DNA of 62,672 nucleotides, the filler included, from an uncultured bacterium (GTDB taxonomy: Bacteria > CAZDME01 > JAYEMH01), in assembly GCA_964506785.1 (NCBI GenBank). It is 3 parts of 3 records of this genome, joined end to end, with 100 filler letters (N's around TTAATTAATTAA, not from the genome) between each part and the next. Parts side by side here need not be neighbours in the genome. Positions count along the whole stretch, not along the records: positions 1 to 21,086 come from CAZDME010000019.1; 2 more parts are not named here. The stretch is one strand, 5' to 3'. The notes under the pieces were generated by a model, which was given only the letters and a program-made list of their open reading frames with translations, was not told where the DNA came from and ran no database searches. The position numbers and the translations under genes are program-made. Below are positions 1-47,115 of this stretch, piece by piece; position 1 is the stretch's first letter, and the number at the start of each line of letters is the position of its first letter.

Positions 1-742
1 CATACAAACGAGGAGCAATAAAAACATTATATTTAGAAAGAAAATCAAAATATTTTATTCCCAGATAAGGTAAAAACTTATTAAACGGTTTTGAAAGATA
101 AAGGGCCGACTGCCATTGATGAACGTTCTGGTCGTCTTTAAAATTGGCGGAATGGACTCCGCTCCAAAATTTCTGGTTCACTGCCCAATCCTGAATCTTA
201 TATTTCCGTCCGGTATTATCCCGGGTAGTACGTTCAGCGGCATCGGTCTTAAACCAAAGGTAGGATAAACTCATACCTATTTTCCAATCATCTTTAAATT
301 CTATAAGACTGGCTCTTATTCCTCCGCCGAGAGCAACCCCCCAATCACTTTCAAGATCGGTCCGGCTAACCTTGGCTCCATCCTGATACCAATCCAGCTG
401 CCAGTCGGCAAAGGCGCCGCCAACTTTAAAAAAAATATCGAAATTGTCACGGAAACTATAAGCGGTAGCGGCCAAAGGAAGATAAATTTCCCCTTCTACC
501 CCTCTGACATCTTCCCCGCTGGTCAAACCTCCCTGGCTAATAATGCCGCCGCTGGCGTTACAGCGGGTATAAGAGAACTCCTCCAGCTTACCTTCCGGGC
601 GAGTATAATCCGCTTCAAAAGTAGTCGTAAAAGTCCCTTTGGCCTGAGGCGATATCGGATTTCCGGCGGGTAAAGCGTCCAGGGAAGGAATAAAAAAAAG
701 TGAAATTAAACTCAAGGAAATTAAAGCTGGGAAAAATCTCAT
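1..742 (-). CDS. MOMP-like outer-membrane beta-barrel porin, paralog 3 (3' end outside window; absent from ORF track)
   Basis: Hand translation from ATG at 742 (SD GGAGGTG upstream): MRFFPALISLSLISLFFIPSLDA-LPAGNPISP...DLESDWGVALGGG...HQWQSALYLSKPFNKFLPYLGIKY. The frame stays open to the window edge and shares motifs with the two adjacent paralogs. Confidence 0.85.
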   Translation of the reverse strand, partial: MRFFPALISLSLISLFFIPSLDALPAGNPISPQAKGTFTTTFEADYTRPEGKLEEFSYTRCNASGGIISQGGLTSGEDVRGVEGEIYLPLAATAYSFRDNFDIFFKVGGAFADWQLDWYQDGAKVSRTDLESDWGVALGGGIRASLIEFKDDWKIGMSLSYLWFKTDAAERTTRDNTGRKYKIQDWAVNQKFWSGVHSANFKDDQNVHQWQSALYLSKPFNKFLPYLGIKYFDFLSKYNVFIAPRLY

Positions 743-782
743 CCTTCACCTCCGGGAATAGTTTTAAAAGGCAGACTAAATT

Positions 783-1541
783 TTAGAAATTGATTTTAAA
801 ACCGGCGTTCAAAGCCGTTTCGTCGATAAATCTCCCTTCCAGGTTTAAAGAAATATTTTCCTTCCATTGATAATCACAACCGAGGAATATACCGACGATA
901 TCTTTGCTGTTCGCCCTTGTCGTATGTATTGTCCCGTGGTCATCAATTTCCAATTTACATTCGCAATCCGAATATTTAACCCCGAGGTAAGGAGTAAATT
1001 GTGGAAGACTATAAGAAACACCCAAACTGCCTTGCCATTCTCGATATCTAAATTCCCTCTTGATAACACCGCTTACATCTGCGCCTGATTTTTTGACCGT
1101 TTCCACCCCGGGAGCATAATCGCGGTAATCCCCCCCCAGGCTAACCCGTAAAATACCATCGCCGTATTTTTCGGTCTCATAAAGAAGCAATTTAAAACCA
1201 GAACCCCAGGCGACAGCCGGGTCTGTCTCTAAAGTATAATCATTAACCGTCCACTCATCGATTTCCAAATCGGCAGTCCCTATTAATCCGTAAATATCTA
1301 TCTTTTCAACCAATTTTATACTCACTTTACCAAAATACCATTGCCCTTTGATTACGGCATTATCGCCCGATAGGTCAAAATCCCGGTCAAACAGAAAATC
1401 AACCATAGCTTCTGCCTTAATTGGATAAGTGCCGTTAAGAAGCACCGGATCGGCTGGATTCCCTGCCGGCGCCGCTTGAGCGGAAACCGTTGTCGCCAAA
1501 AGCAATCCAAAAACCGCTAAAAATAAAAACACCCTCATCAT
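783..1541 (-). CDS. MOMP-like outer-membrane beta-barrel porin, paralog 2
   Basis: Signal peptide, then APAGNPADP, DFLFDR, YREWQGSLGVSY, FTPYLGVKYS, EGRFIDETA and a C-terminal Phe. These motifs resemble chlamydial MOMP/OmpA. Confidence 0.85.
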   Translation of the reverse strand: MMRVFLFLAVFGLLLATTVSAQAAPAGNPADPVLLNGTYPIKAEAMVDFLFDRDFDLSGDNAVIKGQWYFGKVSIKLVEKIDIYGLIGTADLEIDEWTVNDYTLETDPAVAWGSGFKLLLYETEKYGDGILRVSLGGDYRDYAPGVETVKKSGADVSGVIKREFRYREWQGSLGVSYSLPQFTPYLGVKYSDCECKLEIDDHGTIHTTRANSKDIVGIFLGCDYQWKENISLNLEGRFIDETALNAGFKINF

Positions 1542-1590
1542 TCCCTCCCCCTTGCCTAGAATTTTTGCCGCTTTGTTTTTTGCCTTCTAT

Positions 1591-1620
1591 ATTATATTGT
1601 ATAAAAACTCCGCCTGTCAA
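1591..1620 (-). promoter_or_regulatory. sigma70-type promoter of porin paralog 2
   Basis: TTGACA-18 nt-TATAAT on the minus strand. Confidence 0.7.
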
Positions 1621-1638
1621 GGAGATAAAATAATGCCG

Positions 1639-1678
1639 AAAAAACAAAAAGGCAGGGGTAATATTCTCACCCCTGCCT
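1639..1678 (-). terminator. intrinsic terminator after porin paralog 1
   Basis: 9-bp stem GGCAGGGGT/ACCCCTGCC followed by a U-tract on the minus strand. Confidence 0.8.
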
Positions 1679-1682
1679 GCAA

Positions 1683-1787
1683 ACCCCGTTAGAAAGTTTA
1701 AAAGGCACTTCAAACTTTGCCTGCTTAATCCTTTTTTGATATTAACTCATCTCATCTAAAGGATTAAAGGGTTCTTTCTAACGGGGC
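1683..1787. repeat. palindromic MITE/REP-like element, intergenic copy
   Basis: Perfect 13-bp inverted repeat CCCCGTTAGAAAG (1684-1696) / CTTTCTAACGGGG (1774-1786). Confidence 0.8.
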
Positions 1788-1807
1788 AAATAGAAAATTG
1801 GACTGTC

Positions 1808-2539
1808 TTAGAAATTAATCTTCAGGCCAACATTCACAGCTGTTTCGTCGATAAACCTTCCTTCCAGATTCAAAGCAATGTTTTCCGCAAACAGATAATC
1901 GGCTCCGACGAATACCCCAACTACATTATCACTGTTGATACTGAGAGTATCCAAAGTACCTATATTTGTTCCACTTATCTCAAGGTTAACATCTGAATAT
2001 TTTACGCCAACATAAGGGGTAATCTTGTCTAAAGTGTAGGAAAGTCCTAAGCTGGCTCCCCACTCGGCAAAGTCAACTTCCCCAGAAGAACTTGTGCTCC
2101 CGGAGATAGTATCAATATCCGGTTTATAAGCTCGGTAGTTGCCATCTACGCTAACCCGTAAAATACCGTCACCGTATTCCTCGGTTTCGTAGAGAAGCAC
2201 CTTGGCCCCAAGGCCCCAAGCAACGCCGTATTCTGACTCTATATCATAAACGCTGCTCGTCAATTTTTTCGGCTCTAAATTAGCTGTCCCGAGAAGACCG
2301 TAAACGTCTATTTTTTCGATTAAGGTAACACCTACCTTGGCCAAATACCATTGGGCTTCAATCTCACTACCTTGGTCCAATTCTCTCTCAAAAACAATGT
2401 CAGCTATGGCTTCGCCCTTGATTGGATAGGTGCCGACGAGAAGAACCGGGTCAGCTGGATTACCGGCAGGTGCCGCCTGACTGAGAGCTGGCATAATCAG
2501 AATTAAACTCAAAACAGTTAAAAATAAAATTTTCCTCAT
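1808..2539 (-). CDS. MOMP-like outer-membrane beta-barrel porin, paralog 1
   Basis: Clear paralog of 783..1541 (APAGNPADPVLL, YETEEYGDGILRVS, TPYVGVKYSD, LNLEGRFIDETA, KINF). Confidence 0.85.
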   Translation of the reverse strand: MRKILFLTVLSLILIMPALSQAAPAGNPADPVLLVGTYPIKGEAIADIVFERELDQGSEIEAQWYLAKVGVTLIEKIDVYGLLGTANLEPKKLTSSVYDIESEYGVAWGLGAKVLLYETEEYGDGILRVSVDGNYRAYKPDIDTISGSTSSSGEVDFAEWGASLGLSYTLDKITPYVGVKYSDVNLEISGTNIGTLDTLSINSDNVVGVFVGADYLFAENIALNLEGRFIDETAVNVGLKINF

Positions 2540-2601: not shown

Positions 2602-2630
2602 ATTATATTAAACTGTGCCGGGCTTGTCAA
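2602..2630 (-). promoter_or_regulatory. sigma70 consensus promoter of porin paralog 1
   Basis: TTGACA-17 nt-TATAAT on the minus strand. Confidence 0.8.
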
Positions 2631-6815: not shown

Positions 6816-7391
6816 TTACTTTTCTGGACGCATGCCAAAACTTTTCCTCCTGAAAATTCGGGTAAACCCGGGGAACTTTCCTTTTTTTTCTCTTTTTTTC
6901 CTCTCCTGTTCCTTATCTTTCTCTTTTTCCTTCTCTTTCTCTTTTTCGATAGCCCCTTTATCCTCTTCAGAAAGCTTCTTTCCCTTTACCTTCTTTTCTT
7001 CCGATTTCAGCTTTTTTTTAGGTTTGGCTTTTTCAGTTTTTATTACTAATTCCAACAAAACCAATGAAGCATTGTCGCCCAGTCTTGAATTTAATTTATA
7101 GATTCTGGTATATCCTCCGGCTCGGTCTTTGAAGCGTGGCCCCAGCACATTAAAAATTTTAGCCAGAAGTTTCTTGTTTGAAATCTGCTTAGCCACTTCT
7201 CGCCGAGCCGCAAGAGTTCCAGCTTTGGCAAAACTAATTATTTTTTCAGCTAAACGGGAGATTTCCTTTGCTTTAGCTTCGGTTGTCCTGATACTTTCAT
7301 ACTCCAATAAAGCCGCAGATAGGTTCCGGAAGAGTGCCTTCCGATGATCTTTAGAACGATTGAATTTTTTCCCTCTTTTCAGATGGCGCAT
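6816..7391 (-). CDS. rplQ: 50S ribosomal protein L17 with long Lys/Glu-rich C-terminal tail
   Basis: MRHLKRGKKFNR, TTEAKAKE, GGYTRI; follows rpoA. Confidence 0.97.
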   Translation of the reverse strand: MRHLKRGKKFNRSKDHRKALFRNLSAALLEYESIRTTEAKAKEISRLAEKIISFAKAGTLAARREVAKQISNKKLLAKIFNVLGPRFKDRAGGYTRIYKLNSRLGDNASLVLLELVIKTEKAKPKKKLKSEEKKVKGKKLSEEDKGAIEKEKEKEKEKDKEQERKKREKKGKFPGFTRIFRRKSFGMRPEK

Positions 7392-7394
7392 AAA

Positions 7395-8426
7395 TTAATC
7401 CTTAAGATTTTTTACTTTCGGTTTTCCCGCAGGCATTAAGTCCGGTTTTACATCCTCAGCTAATTTCATTCCGAAAGATAATCCCATATCGCTTAGAATT
7501 TTACCGATTTCGTTAAGGGATTTTTTGCCAAAATTTCTATATTTGAGCATTTCTGCTTCTGTCTTTTGGACCATCTCCTGGATAGTGTCGATTTTGGCTG
7601 CTCTAAGACAATTAGCCGAACGAACAGATAATTCTAATTCGTTTACACTCATCTTCAATTTTTCTTTGAGTTTTTCTTTCTCTTCGTCGATTTCCTCCCG
7701 TACTTCCTCCTGTTCTAACAGCTCCTCAAAATTGATAAATATCGAGAAGTGGTTTTTCAAGAGATAGGCCGCATGGGCCAAAGCATCTTCCGGGCTGATA
7801 GTTCCATTGGTCCATATTTCAAGAAGCAGTCGATCGTAATCGGTAATTTTGCCAACTCGAGTATTTTCGATTTCAAAATTTACCTTCTTAACCGGAGTGA
7901 ATATAGCATCGATTGGAATAACCCCAATTTGACGGGAACTATCTTTATGTTTTTCTATCCCGGCATAACCCCGGCCTACTTGAACCTCCATTTCCATTTC
8001 TAATTTTGCCCCTTTGTTCAAAGTAGCGATGTGGAGGTCGGGATTCAAAATCTCTATGGCTTCATCGACGATAATATCTTTAGCCTTAACTTCCTTCTCC
8101 CCTTTAGCCTGGATTTTGATAGTCCGCGGCCGGTCACTGTGCATCTTTATTATTAGCTCTTTAAGATTCAAAATAATTTCTGTGACATCCTCCCGTATTC
8201 CGGGAATGGTGCTGAATTCATGCATTACCCCGGTAATTTTAACCGAAGTCACCGCCGCCCCCTGGATAGAGGAAAGCAATACCCGCCTGAGACAATTACC
8301 GATAGTTATCCCGTAGCCGCGTTCGAACGGCTCAGCGATTAGCTTGCCATAAGTCGGCTCAAGGCTTTCTCCCTCCCAGTTTATCTTTTTGGGCATTTGT
8401 AAATCTTTGATTAATCTAACGGCCAT
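7395..8426 (-). CDS. rpoA: RNA polymerase alpha subunit
   Basis: EPFERGYGITIGN, LELSVRSANCL, NFGKKSL. The start is placed at ATG 8426 (GGAGG SD), not the TTG at 8510. Confidence 0.97.
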   Translation of the reverse strand: MAVRLIKDLQMPKKINWEGESLEPTYGKLIAEPFERGYGITIGNCLRRVLLSSIQGAAVTSVKITGVMHEFSTIPGIREDVTEIILNLKELIIKMHSDRPRTIKIQAKGEKEVKAKDIIVDEAIEILNPDLHIATLNKGAKLEMEMEVQVGRGYAGIEKHKDSSRQIGVIPIDAIFTPVKKVNFEIENTRVGKITDYDRLLLEIWTNGTISPEDALAHAAYLLKNHFSIFINFEELLEQEEVREEIDEEKEKLKEKLKMSVNELELSVRSANCLRAAKIDTIQEMVQKTEAEMLKYRNFGKKSLNEIGKILSDMGLSFGMKLAEDVKPDLMPAGKPKVKNLKD

Positions 8427-28864: not shown

Positions 28865-28892
28865 TTGACATTAATTTATTTTCCTCTATAAT
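28865..28892 (+). promoter_or_regulatory. sigma70 promoter of the purF-like gene
   Basis: TTGACA-16 nt-TATAAT. Confidence 0.75.
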
Positions 28893-28990: not shown

Positions 28991-30415
28991 ATGAGTGGGA
29001 TCTTCGGCGTGGTTAGCCAGAAGAATTGCTCTGAACTTTTGTTTTATGGCACTGATTATCATTCTCACCTGGGAACAGAATTTGCCGGACTGGCCGTTTG
29101 CGGCAAAAGGATAGTCCGTAAGATTCGCCAGATTAATCAGGCTCAATTTAAAGCCAAGTTCCAAGATGAATATAAGACGATGCTTGGCAATAAAGGAATC
29201 GGTGTCATTAGTTCCCAGGACGAACAGCCCATTTATCTTAATTCTAAATTTGGTCCTTTTGCCATCTGTGTCAATGGATTGATTACTAATTCCCGCCAGT
29301 TAGTCAGGGAAATGCACCAGGATGGAGTATCCTTTAGCGAAACCAGTGAGGATACAGTTAATATGGCCGAACTGGCAGGCAAGATAATCAGCCGGGGTAA
29401 CAATATTGGCGATGGCATCGAAAAGATGTTTGCCCGGATAGAAGGGGCCTGTTCTTTGTTAATTCTACACCAGGATGGTGTTTATGCCGCCCGGGATAAA
29501 AGGGGTTTATCTCCTTTGGTGGTTGGTGAAAAAGAGGAAGCTTGGGCGGTTACCTCTGAGACCACCGCTTTCCCTAATTTAGGGTTTAGGGTAAAGAAAT
29601 ATCTGTCTCCGGGGGAAATTGTTTTACTTACGGAAAAAGGGCCGAAACTTAGAAGTAAGGGAGAGAAAAACGAGCAAATTTGCGCTTTTCTCTGGATTTA
29701 TACCGGTTTCCCAGCCTCCAGTTATGAAGGGATAAATGTAGAAATGGTCAGGGAAAAGTCTGGTCAGTTTTTAGCTAAAAATGATAATGTTAATCCAGAT
29801 ATAGTTAGCGGAGTCCCTGATTCAGGCACCGCTCACGCCATTGGTTACGCTATGGAATCAAAAGTGCCTTTACGGCGCCCTCTGGTTAAATATACCCCGG
29901 GTTATGATCGCAGTTACACCCCGCCTTCCCAAAGGACTCGGGATCTTATTGCCAAAATGAAATTGGTGCCTATTCATCAACTGATTAAAGGAAAGAAAAT
30001 TGTTATCTGCGAAGATTCTATTGTCCGGGGCACCCAATTAAAAAACTATACCGTTCAGAAGCTCTGGAATAACGGGGCCAAAGAGATTCATATTCGTCCT
30101 GCTTGTCCGCCGCTGATGTTTCCCTGCATATTTAATGTTTCTACCCGCTCGATCGATGAGTTAATTGCTCGAAAGGCAATTAAAGCCCTGGAAAGGAAAA
30201 GCCCTAAAGATATCAGCGAGTATCTTGATTCAGGTTCTCGGAAATATAAGCGAATGGTTGAATGGATAAGAAAAAATCTGGGGGTAACCAGTTTAAAATA
30301 TCAAACCATTGATGATATGGTAAAGGCTATTGGATTGCCCAAAAAGAAACTTTGCCTTTATTGCTGGAACGGAAAATTTCCTCCACCTTCCCCAAATTCT
30401 AAAGGATCCGGGTAA
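28991..30415 (+). CDS. purF: amidophosphoribosyltransferase homologue lacking the catalytic N-terminal Cys
   Basis: N-terminus MSGIFG; GVPDSG, EDSIVRGT PRPP motif; Fe-S cysteines (ICAF, PACPP, CLYC). Confidence 0.8.
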   Translation: MSGIFGVVSQKNCSELLFYGTDYHSHLGTEFAGLAVCGKRIVRKIRQINQAQFKAKFQDEYKTMLGNKGIGVISSQDEQPIYLNSKFGPFAICVNGLITNSRQLVREMHQDGVSFSETSEDTVNMAELAGKIISRGNNIGDGIEKMFARIEGACSLLILHQDGVYAARDKRGLSPLVVGEKEEAWAVTSETTAFPNLGFRVKKYLSPGEIVLLTEKGPKLRSKGEKNEQICAFLWIYTGFPASSYEGINVEMVREKSGQFLAKNDNVNPDIVSGVPDSGTAHAIGYAMESKVPLRRPLVKYTPGYDRSYTPPSQRTRDLIAKMKLVPIHQLIKGKKIVICEDSIVRGTQLKNYTVQKLWNNGAKEIHIRPACPPLMFPCIFNVSTRSIDELIARKAIKALERKSPKDISEYLDSGSRKYKRMVEWIRKNLGVTSLKYQTIDDMVKAIGLPKKKLCLYCWNGKFPPPSPNSKGSG

Positions 30416-42231: not shown

Positions 42232-44610
42232 CTAAAATTTCACTTCATGTTCAAGGCCAACAAAATCCTCATCTTCTTCAATGCGCAATTTGAATTTTTC
42301 TTTCCCTTTTATCCTATATTCCAATTCCATTTCAGGACCTGGTTCTTCAGCCAAATCTTCTTCTGGCTTACCTACCGTAGGAGTCCTCAAGCTCACGGCA
42401 AAACCTCCGGATACCTCCTTAGTCAAACTTAGCTCATCTTTCTCTTCTTTTTGATCGATTTCCCATCCTTTCCAAACCATCTGGCTCTCATCCAGAAGAT
42501 ACTCAATGTCTCTAAACATCTGCTTGCCTTTTCCGCTAAAGTCTATCGGCCCTCGGCAAATAAGCCTCGTTCCGTCCATTACCACCGGTGATTCCTTCAG
42601 GATAAAGCATGGATTGATTCCTTCAATTTGGAACTTGGCATATTCGATGTTTTTCTTCCCGATTTTAGAATCCTTTAACTCGACTATCCCTTGAACGGCT
42701 ATTTCCGGCCATTTCCCTTTACATTCTATTTTCCCAGAGGCTCTACCGAAATTATCCTCTGCAGAGAAACTGGGAGAAAACCCAAGAAGGGGAACTATAT
42801 CAGCGTTTTCTAAAGTTAAACTTAAATTAATCACCTGCGGGTTGAAACCAATCTCCCCTTCTAAAAAATAAGCCTCAAGCCACCTCATCTTTTCGATAAT
42901 TATTTTTTTTGACCCTATCTTTAATAAACCCCTCATGGGTAAATATTCTTTCCCTTGAATGACTACCGGCTCAACCAATATTTTACCGGTAAACCCCGCA
43001 GGCAGCATCTCACCTGTCAAATTCAACTGGGCTTGAGAAGAAACCTTTTTCCCCTCTAAATTAGCTTTAAGTTTCAGAATATCTGCTTTTTTCTCCCCTT
43101 TAAGGCGGCAAATCAATTTTCCTGAAGATAAAACTGACTCTTCAAGAACTAACCGCTCCTTATCTCCTCTTAAATTAATCTGGCCGTTTAGCCTGCTCGA
43201 CGAATTATCCGCCAGGGGCAAATCTTTTAAAAAAAGTTGAAGCCGCAATAAATAAGGATGAGAAGAAAGGGAGCCGGTTAGGTATGCTTTTTCGCCAAGA
43301 GAGACATTTTCTATTCTGACTGAATCTGCATCCTTTTTAATTTTCCATTTAATAATATTTTTCTTTCCAAAGCGTTCCCAAACCAAATTTCCTTGATAAT
43401 TAACCTCAGGGGAACCGATTAAGCCGGTAACCCTGCCCTCCGCTTTAAATACCCCGGGAAAATCCGGCCACTTCTTTAAGTAAAAAGATAAATTTTTGCT
43501 TCCTAAAGGCGGCAGGCAAAAATGAAATCCATAGGTTAAATCATCCTTTACCTCCGCCTGCCAGACTAATTTTCCCAGCTCAGCCACAAATATTTCTCCA
43601 TTTTTACAGAACAGGTTTTGGTCGACACGGCCTAATTGACAGCTAATCTTTTCTAAAGAAATTTTCTCCTCCCCTTGAACAAAAATAAGGTTTCCTAAAA
43701 CCCTGGGTTCAAATAAAGGCCCGCTGAAGTTTATCTCCCCAAAACACTCGGCAAAAGGCAGCTTAATCCCTTTTATTTTCATCTGACTGACCAGATTCGG
43801 TTTAGAAAAAATTTCGGTAACTTTTATTTTCCCGGCAATTTGTCCTTTTAGAATTTTTGCCTGGGCTGGCGAAAAATTAATAAATCCATCGCCAAAATAA
43901 AAGTTGGATTTGATCTGCGGAAATTGGAAATTTTTAGACCCGACGTTATTCAATACGATTTCGCCCAGAACTTTTATTTTCCCCGGCTCTCCAGTTAAAC
44001 GTCCAGAAATCCTGCCCCGGCCGGAAAGTTTCAAAGGTTCCAATCTTGGCCAAAATCCGGCTAAATCCTTTATTCCAAAATTGTCTGTCTCGACATCTAA
44101 ATCAATCGTTGGGCCGGCGACAAAATTTCTCAGCCAACCCTTTAGAATCACTTTAGTTTCTCCCAGAGGAAATATCAGGCGGTCAACGTAAAAGTCGTGG
44201 TTGGTTACCACGATTTTCCCTTTGATATTTTTCACCGGCTTGGCTAATGAACGTAATTTCATATTCCCTCCCTGAAAAGATATTTTGCGGAAGGCCTGTT
44301 GATAATCTTTCTTACCTCTAATTAAGTTAAAAAAATTCAGGTGGGTTACCAGCCGGGCCGCCCGAAAACGCTCCAGGGGATATTCTTCTCCAAGAGTCCG
44401 AACCTCCAGGTCAAAAAGATATATTCCTCCTAAAAAACTTACTTTCACTTCTCTTACGGTTATCTCCCTCCCCAGTTTATGGGAAAGCATATCTATCAAG
44501 CTGGCTTTGTAATCTCTTACGAATTTGTTTAAGACAATAAATATGGAAACTCTCCCCGCTAAAAAAAGAATTAAAAGAGAGATAACGACTATCTTTATCT
44601 TTTTTTTCAT
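42232..44610 (-). CDS. AsmA/TamB-like periplasm-spanning beta-rich protein
   Basis: N-terminal membrane anchor, then LSHKLGREITV and repeated amphipathic beta strands (G.I.G.L.G patterns). Confidence 0.6.
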   Translation of the reverse strand: MKKKIKIVVISLLILFLAGRVSIFIVLNKFVRDYKASLIDMLSHKLGREITVREVKVSFLGGIYLFDLEVRTLGEEYPLERFRAARLVTHLNFFNLIRGKKDYQQAFRKISFQGGNMKLRSLAKPVKNIKGKIVVTNHDFYVDRLIFPLGETKVILKGWLRNFVAGPTIDLDVETDNFGIKDLAGFWPRLEPLKLSGRGRISGRLTGEPGKIKVLGEIVLNNVGSKNFQFPQIKSNFYFGDGFINFSPAQAKILKGQIAGKIKVTEIFSKPNLVSQMKIKGIKLPFAECFGEINFSGPLFEPRVLGNLIFVQGEEKISLEKISCQLGRVDQNLFCKNGEIFVAELGKLVWQAEVKDDLTYGFHFCLPPLGSKNLSFYLKKWPDFPGVFKAEGRVTGLIGSPEVNYQGNLVWERFGKKNIIKWKIKKDADSVRIENVSLGEKAYLTGSLSSHPYLLRLQLFLKDLPLADNSSSRLNGQINLRGDKERLVLEESVLSSGKLICRLKGEKKADILKLKANLEGKKVSSQAQLNLTGEMLPAGFTGKILVEPVVIQGKEYLPMRGLLKIGSKKIIIEKMRWLEAYFLEGEIGFNPQVINLSLTLENADIVPLLGFSPSFSAEDNFGRASGKIECKGKWPEIAVQGIVELKDSKIGKKNIEYAKFQIEGINPCFILKESPVVMDGTRLICRGPIDFSGKGKQMFRDIEYLLDESQMVWKGWEIDQKEEKDELSLTKEVSGGFAVSLRTPTVGKPEEDLAEEPGPEMELEYRIKGKEKFKLRIEEDEDFVGLEHEVKF

Positions 44611-44667: not shown

Positions 44668-47115
44668 TTATTTGTTATCTGCCTTTTCAAATACTAATTT
44701 ATCCTTTTGGGATTTTACTACAACTAGAGAACCAATCGGAAATTTGCCTTTTAGCATATCCATAGACAGGGGGTCTTCGATAAACCTCTGAATAGCTCGG
44801 CGTAAGGGGCGGGCTCCAAAGCTGGGGTCGTATCCTTTATCAATCAAAAACTCTTTGGCTTCGTTGGTGAGTTTTATCTTTAATTCTTTCTCGGTAAGGC
44901 GTTTCTTTACCTTTTCCACCATTAAATCAACAATTTGCATAAGGTCTTCTTTAGAAAGAGACGAAAAAACAACCATTTCATCAATGCGGTTAAGAAATTC
45001 GGGCTGAAAGGTCTTTCTAAGTTCATCCATCAATTTGTCTTTCATCTCTTTGTAAGATTCAGCCCGATCAGGCGCAGTAAAACCCAAAGAAGTTTTTTTA
45101 TCAATCAAACGCGCCCCGACATTTGAAGTCATTATTAAAACTACATTTCGGAAATCTACGGCCCGGCCCAGACTATCGGTAAGACGCCCGTCTTCAATAA
45201 CCTGAAGAAGAATGTTAAAGACATCGGGATGAGCCTTTTCTATTTCATCTAAAAGGACAACAGAATAAGGCCTCCTTCTGACTTTTTCGGTTAACTGCCC
45301 GCCTTCTTCATAGCCGACATAACCCGGAGGCGCTCCCACTAAACGAGAAACCGCAAATTTTTCCATATATTCGGACATATCAATTTGAATCATCGCCTCT
45401 TCATTGCCAAAAAGAAATTCAGCTAAAGCTCGAGCCAGCTCGGTTTTTCCCACTCCGGTAGGCCCCAAAAAGATAAAAGAGCCAATCGGCCGTTTGGGGT
45501 CTTTTATCCCCGCCCGTGAACGCCGCACCGCCCGGGTAACCACTGATAAAGCCTCATCCTGTCCGACAACTCTTTTATGAAGCTCTTCTTCCATCCTGAG
45601 AAGCCGGCCGGTCTCTTCCTCTTCCAACTGGGTAACCGGAATACCCGTCCATTTGGAAACAATCGAAGCAATATCTTCCCCGGTAACAAGAACCTTTTCT
45701 TCAGCCGTTTCATCTTTCTTCCACTGCTTCTTAGTCGTCTCCAGTTCTACCTTGAGTTGATGGTGCGTATCCCGAAGGCCGGCGGCGCGTTCGAATTCCT
45801 GCATTTTGACTGCCGCTTCTTTCTCTTTGTTCACTTTAGAAATTTCCTTTTCCAATTCCTGCAGTTTAGGCGGCGGGGTGCCTGCTTTTAAACGAGCTCG
45901 AGAACCAGCTTCGTCAATCAAATCAATCGCCTTATCAGGTAAAAATCTTCCGGAGATATATCGGTCAGAAAGCTTGGCCGCCATCTCCAAAGCTTCATCA
46001 GTAATTTTTACCCGGTGGTGAGTCTCATAACGGCCCCTTAATCCTTTAAGAATCTCGATGGTTTCATTAACCGTTGGCGGTTCGATAAAAATGGGCTGAA
46101 ATCTCCTCTCTAAAGCAGCGTCTTTTTCAACATGTTTGCGATATTCGTCTAAAGTAGTCGCTCCAATACATTGAATTTCTCCGCGAGAAAGAGCCGGTTT
46201 CAAAATGTTGGACGCATCAATTGCTCCTTCAGCCGCCCCGGCCCCCACCAGATTATGCAATTCATCGATAAAAACAATTACGTCTTTAGAACGGCGGATT
46301 TCATTCATTACCGCTTTAATTCTCTCTTCAAACTGACCGCGGTACTTAGTCCCGGCGACCATTAAAGCTAAATCCAGAGTTACTAATCGGCGGTTTTTCA
46401 ATACATGAGAAATTTCGTCGGCAACGATTCTCTGCGCTAAACCTTCAACAATGGCCGTCTTGCCGACACCAGCTTCTCCAATGAGAACGGGATTATTCTT
46501 TGTCCGGCGGCTCAAAACCTGGATGACTCTTTCAATTTCATCTTGGCGGCCGATAACCGGGTCAAGTTTATCTTGACGGGCTAACTCGGTTAAATCCCGG
46601 CTAAAAGCGTCTAAAGCCGGGCTTTTAGATTTTTTGGCCGTCTCTCCGGCTATCCCTAAGCCTGGGGGAGATTCGGCTGCTCCTCCTAAAAGATTACTGA
46701 TTTCTATTTTTACCTTTTCAAAGGTAAGTCCCATTTTTTCTAAAACTCTAGCGGCCACACCTTCACCTTCCCGGACCAAACCAAGCAGGATATGTTCCGT
46801 GCCAATATAGGTATGAGCCATCGCTTGAGCGCTCTCAATAGCCAATTCCAAAACCTTCTTAGCCCGGGGGGTAAAAGGTATCTCTCCTAAGGTTAAAGTT
46901 GGCGGCCCGCCTTGGACCATCTTTTCGACTTCTAATCGGAGGCTGTCTAAATCCAAACTTAAATTCTGCAGGACAATGGCGGCTACACCCTCTCCTTCGC
47001 GAACTAAACCTAAAAGGAGATGTTCGGTGCCGATATAATTATGCCCTAATTTGCCCGCTTCTTCACGAGCAAGTTTTATTACCCTCTTTGCTCTTTCGGT
47101 AAAATGTTCAAACAT
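44668..47115 (-). CDS. clpC: ATP-dependent Clp protease ATPase ClpC
   Basis: Two Clp N repeats (YIGTEH), [11 protein letters not shown] coiled coil, [15 protein letters not shown]. Confidence 0.96.

Follow-up and report, generated by a model that had tools for sequence, protein, structure and literature searches.

The stretch of DNA analysed here (62,672 nucleotides including filler between its three joined parts, hereafter the window) comes from an uncultured bacterium (assembly GCA_964506785.1). In its first ~2.5 kb it carries an array of three co-directional genes, each encoding a protein of ~245–250 amino acids (aa) that belongs to the family of MOMP (Chlamydia's major outer membrane protein), the leading vaccine antigen of that genus. 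The coordinates of these genes (paralogs 1 to 3) and of their transcription signals are given in Table 1. A first-pass annotation of the sequence had described the array as at least three compact MOMP-like porins with signal peptides, and the three co-directional genes were confirmed from the open reading frames (ORFs), as were signal-like N-termini by reading the sequence. Paralog 3, which had been reported as missing from the ORF track, was seen only when open-ended frames were listed; truncation at the window edge probably explains its absence from the track.

Table 1. Genes and putative transcription signals of the MOMP-family array (positions in the window)
Feature	Position	Strand	Description
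Paralog 1	1808..2539	-	243-aa precursor, compact MOMP-family barrel (predicted), 0 cysteines
Paralog 2	783..1541	-	252 aa, compact MOMP-family barrel (predicted), 3 cysteines
Paralog 3	2..742	-	247 aa in the window, divergent member, 1 cysteine; C-terminus beyond the window start
Promoter of paralog 1	2602..2630	-	TTGACA, 17 nt, TATAAT; 12/12 consensus (sigma-70-type)
Promoter of paralog 2	1591..1620	-	TTGACA, 18 nt, TATAAT; 12/12 consensus (sigma-70-type)
Terminator-like hairpin	1650..1678	-	12-bp stem then T run, between paralogs 1 and 2 (consensus scan)

At the N-terminus of each paralog a hydrophobic signal-like segment and an A-x-A-type site were read from the sequence, and mature paralog 1 would begin at residue 23 (APAGNPADP...). 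Paralogs 1 and 2 are 55% identical, and paralog 3 shares 25% identity with paralog 1. Perfect TTGACA-N16-18-TATAAT sites occur three times in the whole 62.7-kb window and in none of 100 shuffles. Two of the three precede paralogs 1 and 2, so that the consensus promoters claimed for these genes in the first-pass annotation were found as described. The third (28865–28892, plus strand) lies upstream of an ORF at 28991–30415, whose 474-aa product has glutamine amidotransferase domains. No promoter match was found before paralog 3 in the consensus scan; this gene starts 40 nt past the stop of paralog 2, has its own GGAGG-type ribosome-binding site and is probably co-transcribed with paralog 2. The hairpin is a pattern match at which transcription might terminate. 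From the two promoters, the hairpin, the 40-nt gap and the lack of a promoter match before paralog 3 we infer two units: paralog 1 would be transcribed alone from its perfect promoter, and paralogs 2 and 3 together from the second one. Rfam and tRNA scans of the window gave no match.

Relationship of the three proteins to MOMP

The Pfam family Chlam_OMP (PF01308, curated cut-off 20 bits) matched paralog 1 with 47.8 bits, paralog 2 with 36.4 bits and paralog 3 with 18.6 bits; an NCBIfam scan of the window proteins gave no meaningful match. When a profile made from an alignment of 23 family members (profile A1) was compared with all PDB sequences, the entries 9oq7/9oqd, named 'Major outer membrane porin', were matched with an E-value of 4.1e-31, positions 23–255 of the profile aligning with residues 1–365 of chain 9oq7_A in two stretches, whereas the next-best match, OmpX, had an E-value of 0.012. 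The motif pairs with MOMP and their order, as given in the first-pass annotation, are borne out by the alignment to 9oq7, except that LYTDTAFAWSVG stands where the annotation had LYTDTTFAWSVG. Paralog 2 contains all the motifs cited there. The proteins are true members of the MOMP family. Their alignment with the MOMP (OmpA) of C. muridarum (9oq7/9oqd) is collinear, beginning at the first residue of the mature chain and reaching the C-terminal Phe, and they share with it the xPxGNPxxPxL N-terminus, the EWQ, PYxGVK(Y/W)S and E-x-R-x-IDE-x-A...F motifs and a ten-stranded barrel (predicted here). Detection of these proteins by the existing Pfam model means that a known family is extended and no new kind of protein is added.

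The window proteins differ from MOMP in being ~135 aa shorter, in lacking its Cys-rich periplasmic loop and the variable domains (VD1–VD4) of its trimeric cap, and in occurring in a non-chlamydial organism. The true MOMP of a chlamydial genome (locus L110, 761 bits in Pfam) was placed on the compact profile with hmmalign and corresponds to that profile with five segments, of 20, 32, 26, 22 and 35 aa, inserted into it. The first is a Cys-rich segment directly after the N-terminal 12 residues, and the remaining ones lie in the loops that join predicted strands 1-2, 3-4, 5-6 and 7-8, at the positions of VD1–VD4. Neither paralog 1 nor paralog 2 has any of the VD insertions or the 20-aa Cys-rich loop. 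Cysteines number 0, 3 and 1 in paralogs 1, 2 and 3, as against 8–10 in six MOMP rows. Hence, the earlier statement that the proteins lack the large variable loops and are poor in cysteine, with none in paralog 1, was correct. Chlamydiaceae MOMP proper, an antigenic protein and a component of COMC, the outer membrane complex of chlamydiae, was rejected as an identification, the VD cap and the conserved cysteines of this disulfide-linked complex being absent. Paralog 3 and its ortholog in a relative carry loop insertions of 20 and 14 aa (hmmalign) that sit where MOMP has VD1 and VD3, and these loop sites therefore look like sites of recurrent elaboration.

Predicted barrel and putative N-terminal stopper segment

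The AlphaFold2 model of mature paralog 1, calculated with a 148-row alignment, has ten strands, with a predicted local distance difference test score (pLDDT) of 95.2 and a predicted template modelling score of 0.89; with a shallow alignment the pLDDT was 78.6 only. Residues 1–10 of the mature protein have a pLDDT of 94, a short helix is formed at residues 8–11, and the loops predicted for paralogs 1 and 2 are very short. A three-copy complex prediction of mature paralog 1 scored 0.00, which is no verdict and carries no weight on a trimer either way.

The likeness of these proteins to MOMP might be ascribed to chance motifs in an ordinary eight-stranded barrel of the OmpA, OmpX or opacity type. 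Weak Pfam matches to OMP_b-brl (PF13505; 27.8 and 20.7 bits) and Opacity (16.4 and 12.6 bits) point that way, as does one source that labels a relative 'opacity protein-like surface antigen', but these matches lie below the cut-offs (28.7 for PF13505 and 21 for Opacity), MOMP is matched end to end with an E-value of 4e-31 against 0.012 for OmpX, and the model has ten strands instead of eight. The Pfam scores, the PDB profile search and the ten-strand model rule this reading out, and we give it practically no credence.

In a full-library structural search the closest neighbour of the model was the Legionella Dot/Icm porin I (9nh1; Z 14.2 over 189 aligned residues), followed by OpcA (2vdf; Z 13.0, 183 residues) and pOmpT (7xw0; Z 12.9, 195 residues), and Foldseek also pointed to OmpT and Pla. 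The solved MOMP entry was absent from the matches returned by all three fold searches (the Foldseek copy extending to April 2026). The paper on the MOMP structure (PMC13254160) names OpcA and 9NH1 as the nearest known structures. The resemblance to these ten-stranded 'OmpT-like' barrels holds at the level of the fold (Z 12.9–14.2 over 183–195 residues), with identities of only 8–16% in the structural alignments; they are not among the PDB sequence matches at E-values up to 1, and they differ from the window proteins in their loops and functions (protease, adhesin, secretion-system component). A classical 16-stranded porin of the OmpF/OmpC type was ruled out, the model having ten strands and the porin chains aligning with template modelling scores of 0.17–0.24 only (Foldseek).

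One important question is whether these proteins are porins, as the first-pass annotation called them. Native MOMP of C. muridarum was solved as a trimer of ten-stranded, narrow, non-permeable barrels, in which the variable domains build a folded cap and an N-terminal segment acts as a stopper, or plug, in the lumen (Guo et al. 2026, PMC13254160). The minimal diameter of the barrel is ~4.3 Å even when cap and stopper are computationally removed, which is too narrow for sugars (PMC13254160). With this structure the topology of MOMP, which the array had been expected to inform, was already solved in 2026. The first 12 mature residues of the window proteins, APAGNPADPVLL, are collinear with and similar to the plug segment of MOMP, LPVGNPAEPSLM (profile A1 against 9oq7), the stopper sequence being kept almost residue for residue. 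The compact proteins correspond to the stem and stopper of MOMP, without the cap and the Cys-bearing periplasmic loop. The label 'porin' is doubtful, given the narrow, plugged barrel of solved MOMP and the stopper sequence kept here.

We consider it likely that the three genes encode compact, signal-exported, short-looped, ten-stranded barrels of the MOMP family that are abundant and closed or nearly closed, and that serve a structural role instead of acting as general diffusion porins. Each paralog would be exported through a cleavable signal peptide and inserted into the outer membrane by the usual route that depends on a signal peptide and a C-terminal aromatic residue. There it would fold into a ten-stranded barrel whose surface loops are short and whose C-terminal residue is aromatic, equivalent to the membrane stem of MOMP, and its N-terminal 12 residues would plug the lumen, leaving a closed or nearly closed structural barrel.

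Several points weigh against this reading. Older bilayer and liposome assays gave porin activity for MOMP (cited in PMC13254160), and the structure paper leaves open a second, porin-competent conformation of the protein (PMC13254160). In the window lineage 5 of 7 rows have the strict GNPxxP motif of the stopper, as do 29 of 54 compact chlamydial rows and 5 of 6 long MOMPs, but only 5 of the 67 other non-chlamydial rows have it, so that the plug may not be a family-wide feature. The placing of the stopper in the lumen is deduced from collinearity with MOMP, and the presumed high expression of paralogs 1 and 2 from the consensus of their promoters. Finally, paralog 3, whose sequence is cut by the window edge, falls just below the PF01308 cut-off (18.6 against 20 bits), and its ortholog at locus L001 gave no Pfam match at an E-value of 0.001.

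If the proteins were general diffusion porins, they would form small MOMP-like channels that pass nutrients over the outer membrane. MOMP has long been described as a porin (background in PMC2811131; older assays cited in PMC13254160), the promoters appear to be of the high-expression kind, as in major porins, and the small 12-stranded channels KdgM and NanC stand lower in the structural list with Z-scores of 9–10. Against this, the predicted barrel has ten strands, the tunnel of solved MOMP measures ~4.3 Å at its narrowest even without plug and cap, the classical 16-stranded porins match poorly and the plug segment is kept in the sequence. We regard a diffusion porin as unlikely, although it deserves some credence.

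The paralogs could also be surface adhesins or receptors on a ten-stranded scaffold, like OpcA and in line with the adhesion role proposed for MOMP, paralog 3 then being a specialised binding variant. OpcA is among the best structural matches (Z 13.0), paralog 3 and its ortholog have their 20-aa and 14-aa inserts at the VD1 and VD3 loop sites, and attachment to other cells is the presumed lifestyle of Omnitrophota-labelled relatives (PMC10066038). However, the very short loops of paralogs 1 and 2 leave little surface for binding, and no binding partner or host is known. An adhesive function is improbable as the explanation of the array, and it would be compatible with the structural role without being exclusive of it.

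Distribution, host lineage and origin of the compact form

The SecY protein encoded in the window was compared with that of other genomes. Identity was 86% with G002, a metagenome-assembled genome (MAG) labelled Candidatus Ratteibacteria, and 84% with G001, an uncultured bacterium; in the genome collection, the phylum that contains G002 consists of these two alone. Lower values were obtained with two Omnitrophota-labelled genomes (62% for G004 and 59% for G218), a Thermodesulfobacteriota-labelled one (G215, 60%), another Ratteibacteria-labelled MAG (G003, 54%), a Kiritimatiellota-labelled genome (G214, 52%), an Elusimicrobia-labelled genome (G216, 49%) and a Rhabdochlamydiaceae MAG (G005, 47%). 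Judged by SecY (47% to the Rhabdochlamydiaceae MAG against 84–86% to the two MAGs of its own phylum), the host is not chlamydial, in agreement with the first-pass annotation, and its deep lineage has been sampled very thinly. Since SecY is 59–62% identical to that of Omnitrophota-labelled genomes but also 60% to that of a Thermodesulfobacteriota-labelled one, no membership of the Planctomycetota-Verrucomicrobiota-Chlamydiota superphylum is claimed for it. A six-frame search with the Pfam hidden Markov model in 30 genomes listed as 'relatives' of G002 gave matches in G001 and G002 only and in none of 14 control genomes, a result of little weight because the kinship of those genomes is not given. 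The OmcB family (PF03504) had no match in G001, G002, G004 or the chlamydial G005, nor in the controls, which makes this result uninformative. The stretch was found in 7 DNA sequencing runs from sediment and seawater metagenomes, and no RNA run was listed for it.

Upstream of the array lie housekeeping genes, namely those for a tRNA-binding domain protein, a phosphoglucomutase-type enzyme and a sugar nucleotidyltransferase, followed by rpoA, secY and the region of the ribosomal proteins. The same gene order is present at L001, in a relative with a SecY identity of 84% to the window: rpoA, rplQ, a ThiI-like gene, a nucleotidyltransferase, a mutase, a tRNA-binding protein and paralogs 1-2-3. That array has exactly three genes, with a radical-SAM gene and then pyruvate kinase downstream, which is consistent with the 'at least three' of the first-pass annotation. 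Its ortholog of paralog 2 is located at 6914..7669 of that locus, the ortholog of paralog 3 is full-length with 300 aa, and perfect promoters also precede the orthologs of paralogs 1 and 2. At L002 (contig C36 of G002) two family genes are ~6 kb apart, not in tandem, in a neighbourhood unlike that of the window or L001. Two or more copies were found at 21 of 34 chlamydial loci and at 4 of 69 non-chlamydial ones (three copies at one of the 69), a tandem contrast that is, if anything, understated, the flanks examined being ~1.5 kb in one set and 6 kb in the other. One chlamydial genome has 24 family matches, beside which the three copies described earlier as an expansion are modest.

A word-indexed search returned 36 relatives of ~250 aa, most of them with a precomputed PF01308 match. 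Where their sources give a name it is 'hypothetical protein' (NCBI, JGI) or 'opacity protein-like surface antigen'; the NCBI record of a close relative reads 'hypothetical protein [Candidatus Ratteibacteria bacterium]'. In an exhaustive profile search, 2123 cluster representatives matched with E-values up to 0.001; the number was 1347 for a limit of 1e-10 and 279 for one of 1e-30, and nearly all of the best 150 are 230–300 aa long. The compact form is the commonest form of the family. Long members also exist, such as a 454-aa protein on an Elusimicrobia-labelled contig (L071, 5374–6735) and P0051, of 608 aa with two matched stretches; their length suggests fused or duplicated forms.

Phylum counts were made with profile A1 at E-values up to 1e-5 on sampled genomes. 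Matches were present in 59 of 80 genomes of Chlamydiota, the phylum of G005 (one further genome was not scored), 26 of 101 of Omnitrophota, the phylum of G004, and both genomes of the window's own phylum. The phylum of the Kiritimatiellota-labelled G214 had them in 2 of 101, seed included, and that of the Thermodesulfobacteriota-labelled G215 in 15 of 101, seed included and several weak. In Chlamydiota the strong matches (E-values 1e-30 to 1e-42) are frames of 255–310 aa, often side by side, in genomes of 1.4–2.6 Mb, and genomes of ~1.0–1.2 Mb have frames of ~394–405 aa, which are classical MOMP. In environmental Chlamydiota the compact form is the usual one.

In keeping with these frames, compact, Cys-poor MOMP-like families have been described in the environmental chlamydiae Simkania and Rhabdochlamydia (PMC6490308); for MOMP and MOMP-like proteins together, the number given is 37 for Simkania negevensis and 5 for Rhabdochlamydia helvetica (cited in PMC6490308). 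These proteins resemble those of the window in compact size (frames of ~255–310 aa), low cysteine content and frequent tandem arrangement, but they belong to a different phylum, and the deepest supported split of the family separates them from the window proteins. The compact form is not singular to this organism, given this record and the 2123 cluster representatives. In two environmental Chlamydiota MAGs (L042, 6766–8016; L050, 7346–8647) a protein of 416–433 aa with a signal-like N-terminus and a C-terminal aromatic residue is encoded directly after the compact MOMP-like gene or genes. The L042 copy had no Pfam match at an E-value of 0.001, and the protein may be another unnamed outer-membrane barrel.

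A comparison of five chlamydial genomes placed the MOMP cluster in Chlamydiaceae only (Heinz et al. 2009, PMC2811131), and other chlamydiae were added to it in later work (PMC6490308). A literature search that included passages of papers on Omnitrophota gave no description of MOMP homologs in phyla other than Chlamydiota. The one 'momp' match that was checked was the author name Momper, and most other such matches are probably the same.

For the phylogenetic analysis, 5 ORFs shorter than 225 aa and 1 duplicate were dropped from 140 profile matches, which left 134 distinct members of the family. FastTree was run on the 134 rows and a short IQ-TREE analysis (LG+G4) on 92 rows thinned at 62% identity; both trees are unrooted, and the non-chlamydial rows, which came from a motif-seeded scan, carry a sampling bias. 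FastTree separated the 60 chlamydial rows (54 compact and 6 long) from the 74 non-chlamydial ones with a support of 100 and placed the long MOMPs as one clade (99) nested among the compact chlamydial rows. IQ-TREE agreed, with a Shimodaira-Hasegawa-like approximate likelihood ratio (SH-aLRT) support of 100 for the chlamydial split and with the long MOMP nested in chlamydial sets of 11 (99), 13 (96) and 34 (100) rows. In the FastTree tree, paralogs 1 and 2 group with the orthologs of G001 and G002 (100), beside two rows labelled Omnitrophota (84). The L001 ortholog of paralog 2 is its partner in the tree (99), indicating that the duplication that gave paralogs 1 and 2 predates the separation of the window and L001 species. 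Paralog 3 and its ortholog L001_7744 (100) belong to another major subclade than these two paralogs.

A recent horizontal acquisition from a chlamydia, followed by loss of the loops, would account for N- and C-terminal motifs that are strikingly near those of MOMP. The chlamydial and non-chlamydial rows lie, however, on opposite sides of one branch with full support in both trees (FastTree 100, SH-aLRT 100), paralogs 1 and 2 cluster with rows labelled Omnitrophota, a second species has the array and its promoters in synteny, and the GC (guanine plus cytosine) content is uniform over the array region. Recent transfer from chlamydiae is unlikely, and we allow it very little chance.

The array had been interpreted as a minimal, possibly ancestral MOMP barrel. 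This stands in so far as compactness is probably ancestral, with the variable domains gained in the Chlamydiaceae line, because the long MOMP is nested in compact chlamydial forms and the compact form is broadly distributed. It does not stand for the window proteins themselves, which, as we conclude from the trees, are cousins of MOMP on a separate non-chlamydial branch and not its ancestors. As a tentative proposal, with slightly less than an even chance of being right in our judgement, the plugged ten-stranded barrel with its stopper would be an old environmental module that predates Chlamydiota, of which MOMP would be a late offshoot that gained the Cys-rich loop and the four insertions. 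If so, the non-porin architecture of MOMP would be ancestral, such lineages would use a closed barrel as a main outer-membrane protein, and Cys-free homologs of 220 residues would offer a minimal native scaffold for studying the folding, trimerisation and loop display of MOMP.

The MOMP barrel thus appears as one branch of a large, unnamed environmental family of compact proteins. The nesting of the antigenic long form within compact forms suggests an evolutionary path in which the stem came first and loops were then inserted at four fixed sites. Expression for studies of folding and structure should be easier with natural Cys-free homologs, which could provide a minimal model of the MOMP barrel.

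Elsewhere in the window, an ORF at 42232–44610 (minus strand) encodes a 792-aa protein without a Pfam family at an E-value of 1e-5, and adjoins the gene of a ClpB/ClpC-type AAA protein (44668–47115). The sign of the GC skew tracks gene orientation over the window, being negative at 1–20 kb, positive at 22–42 kb and negative again at 42–62 kb, where the ORFs lie on the minus, plus and minus strands, respectively.

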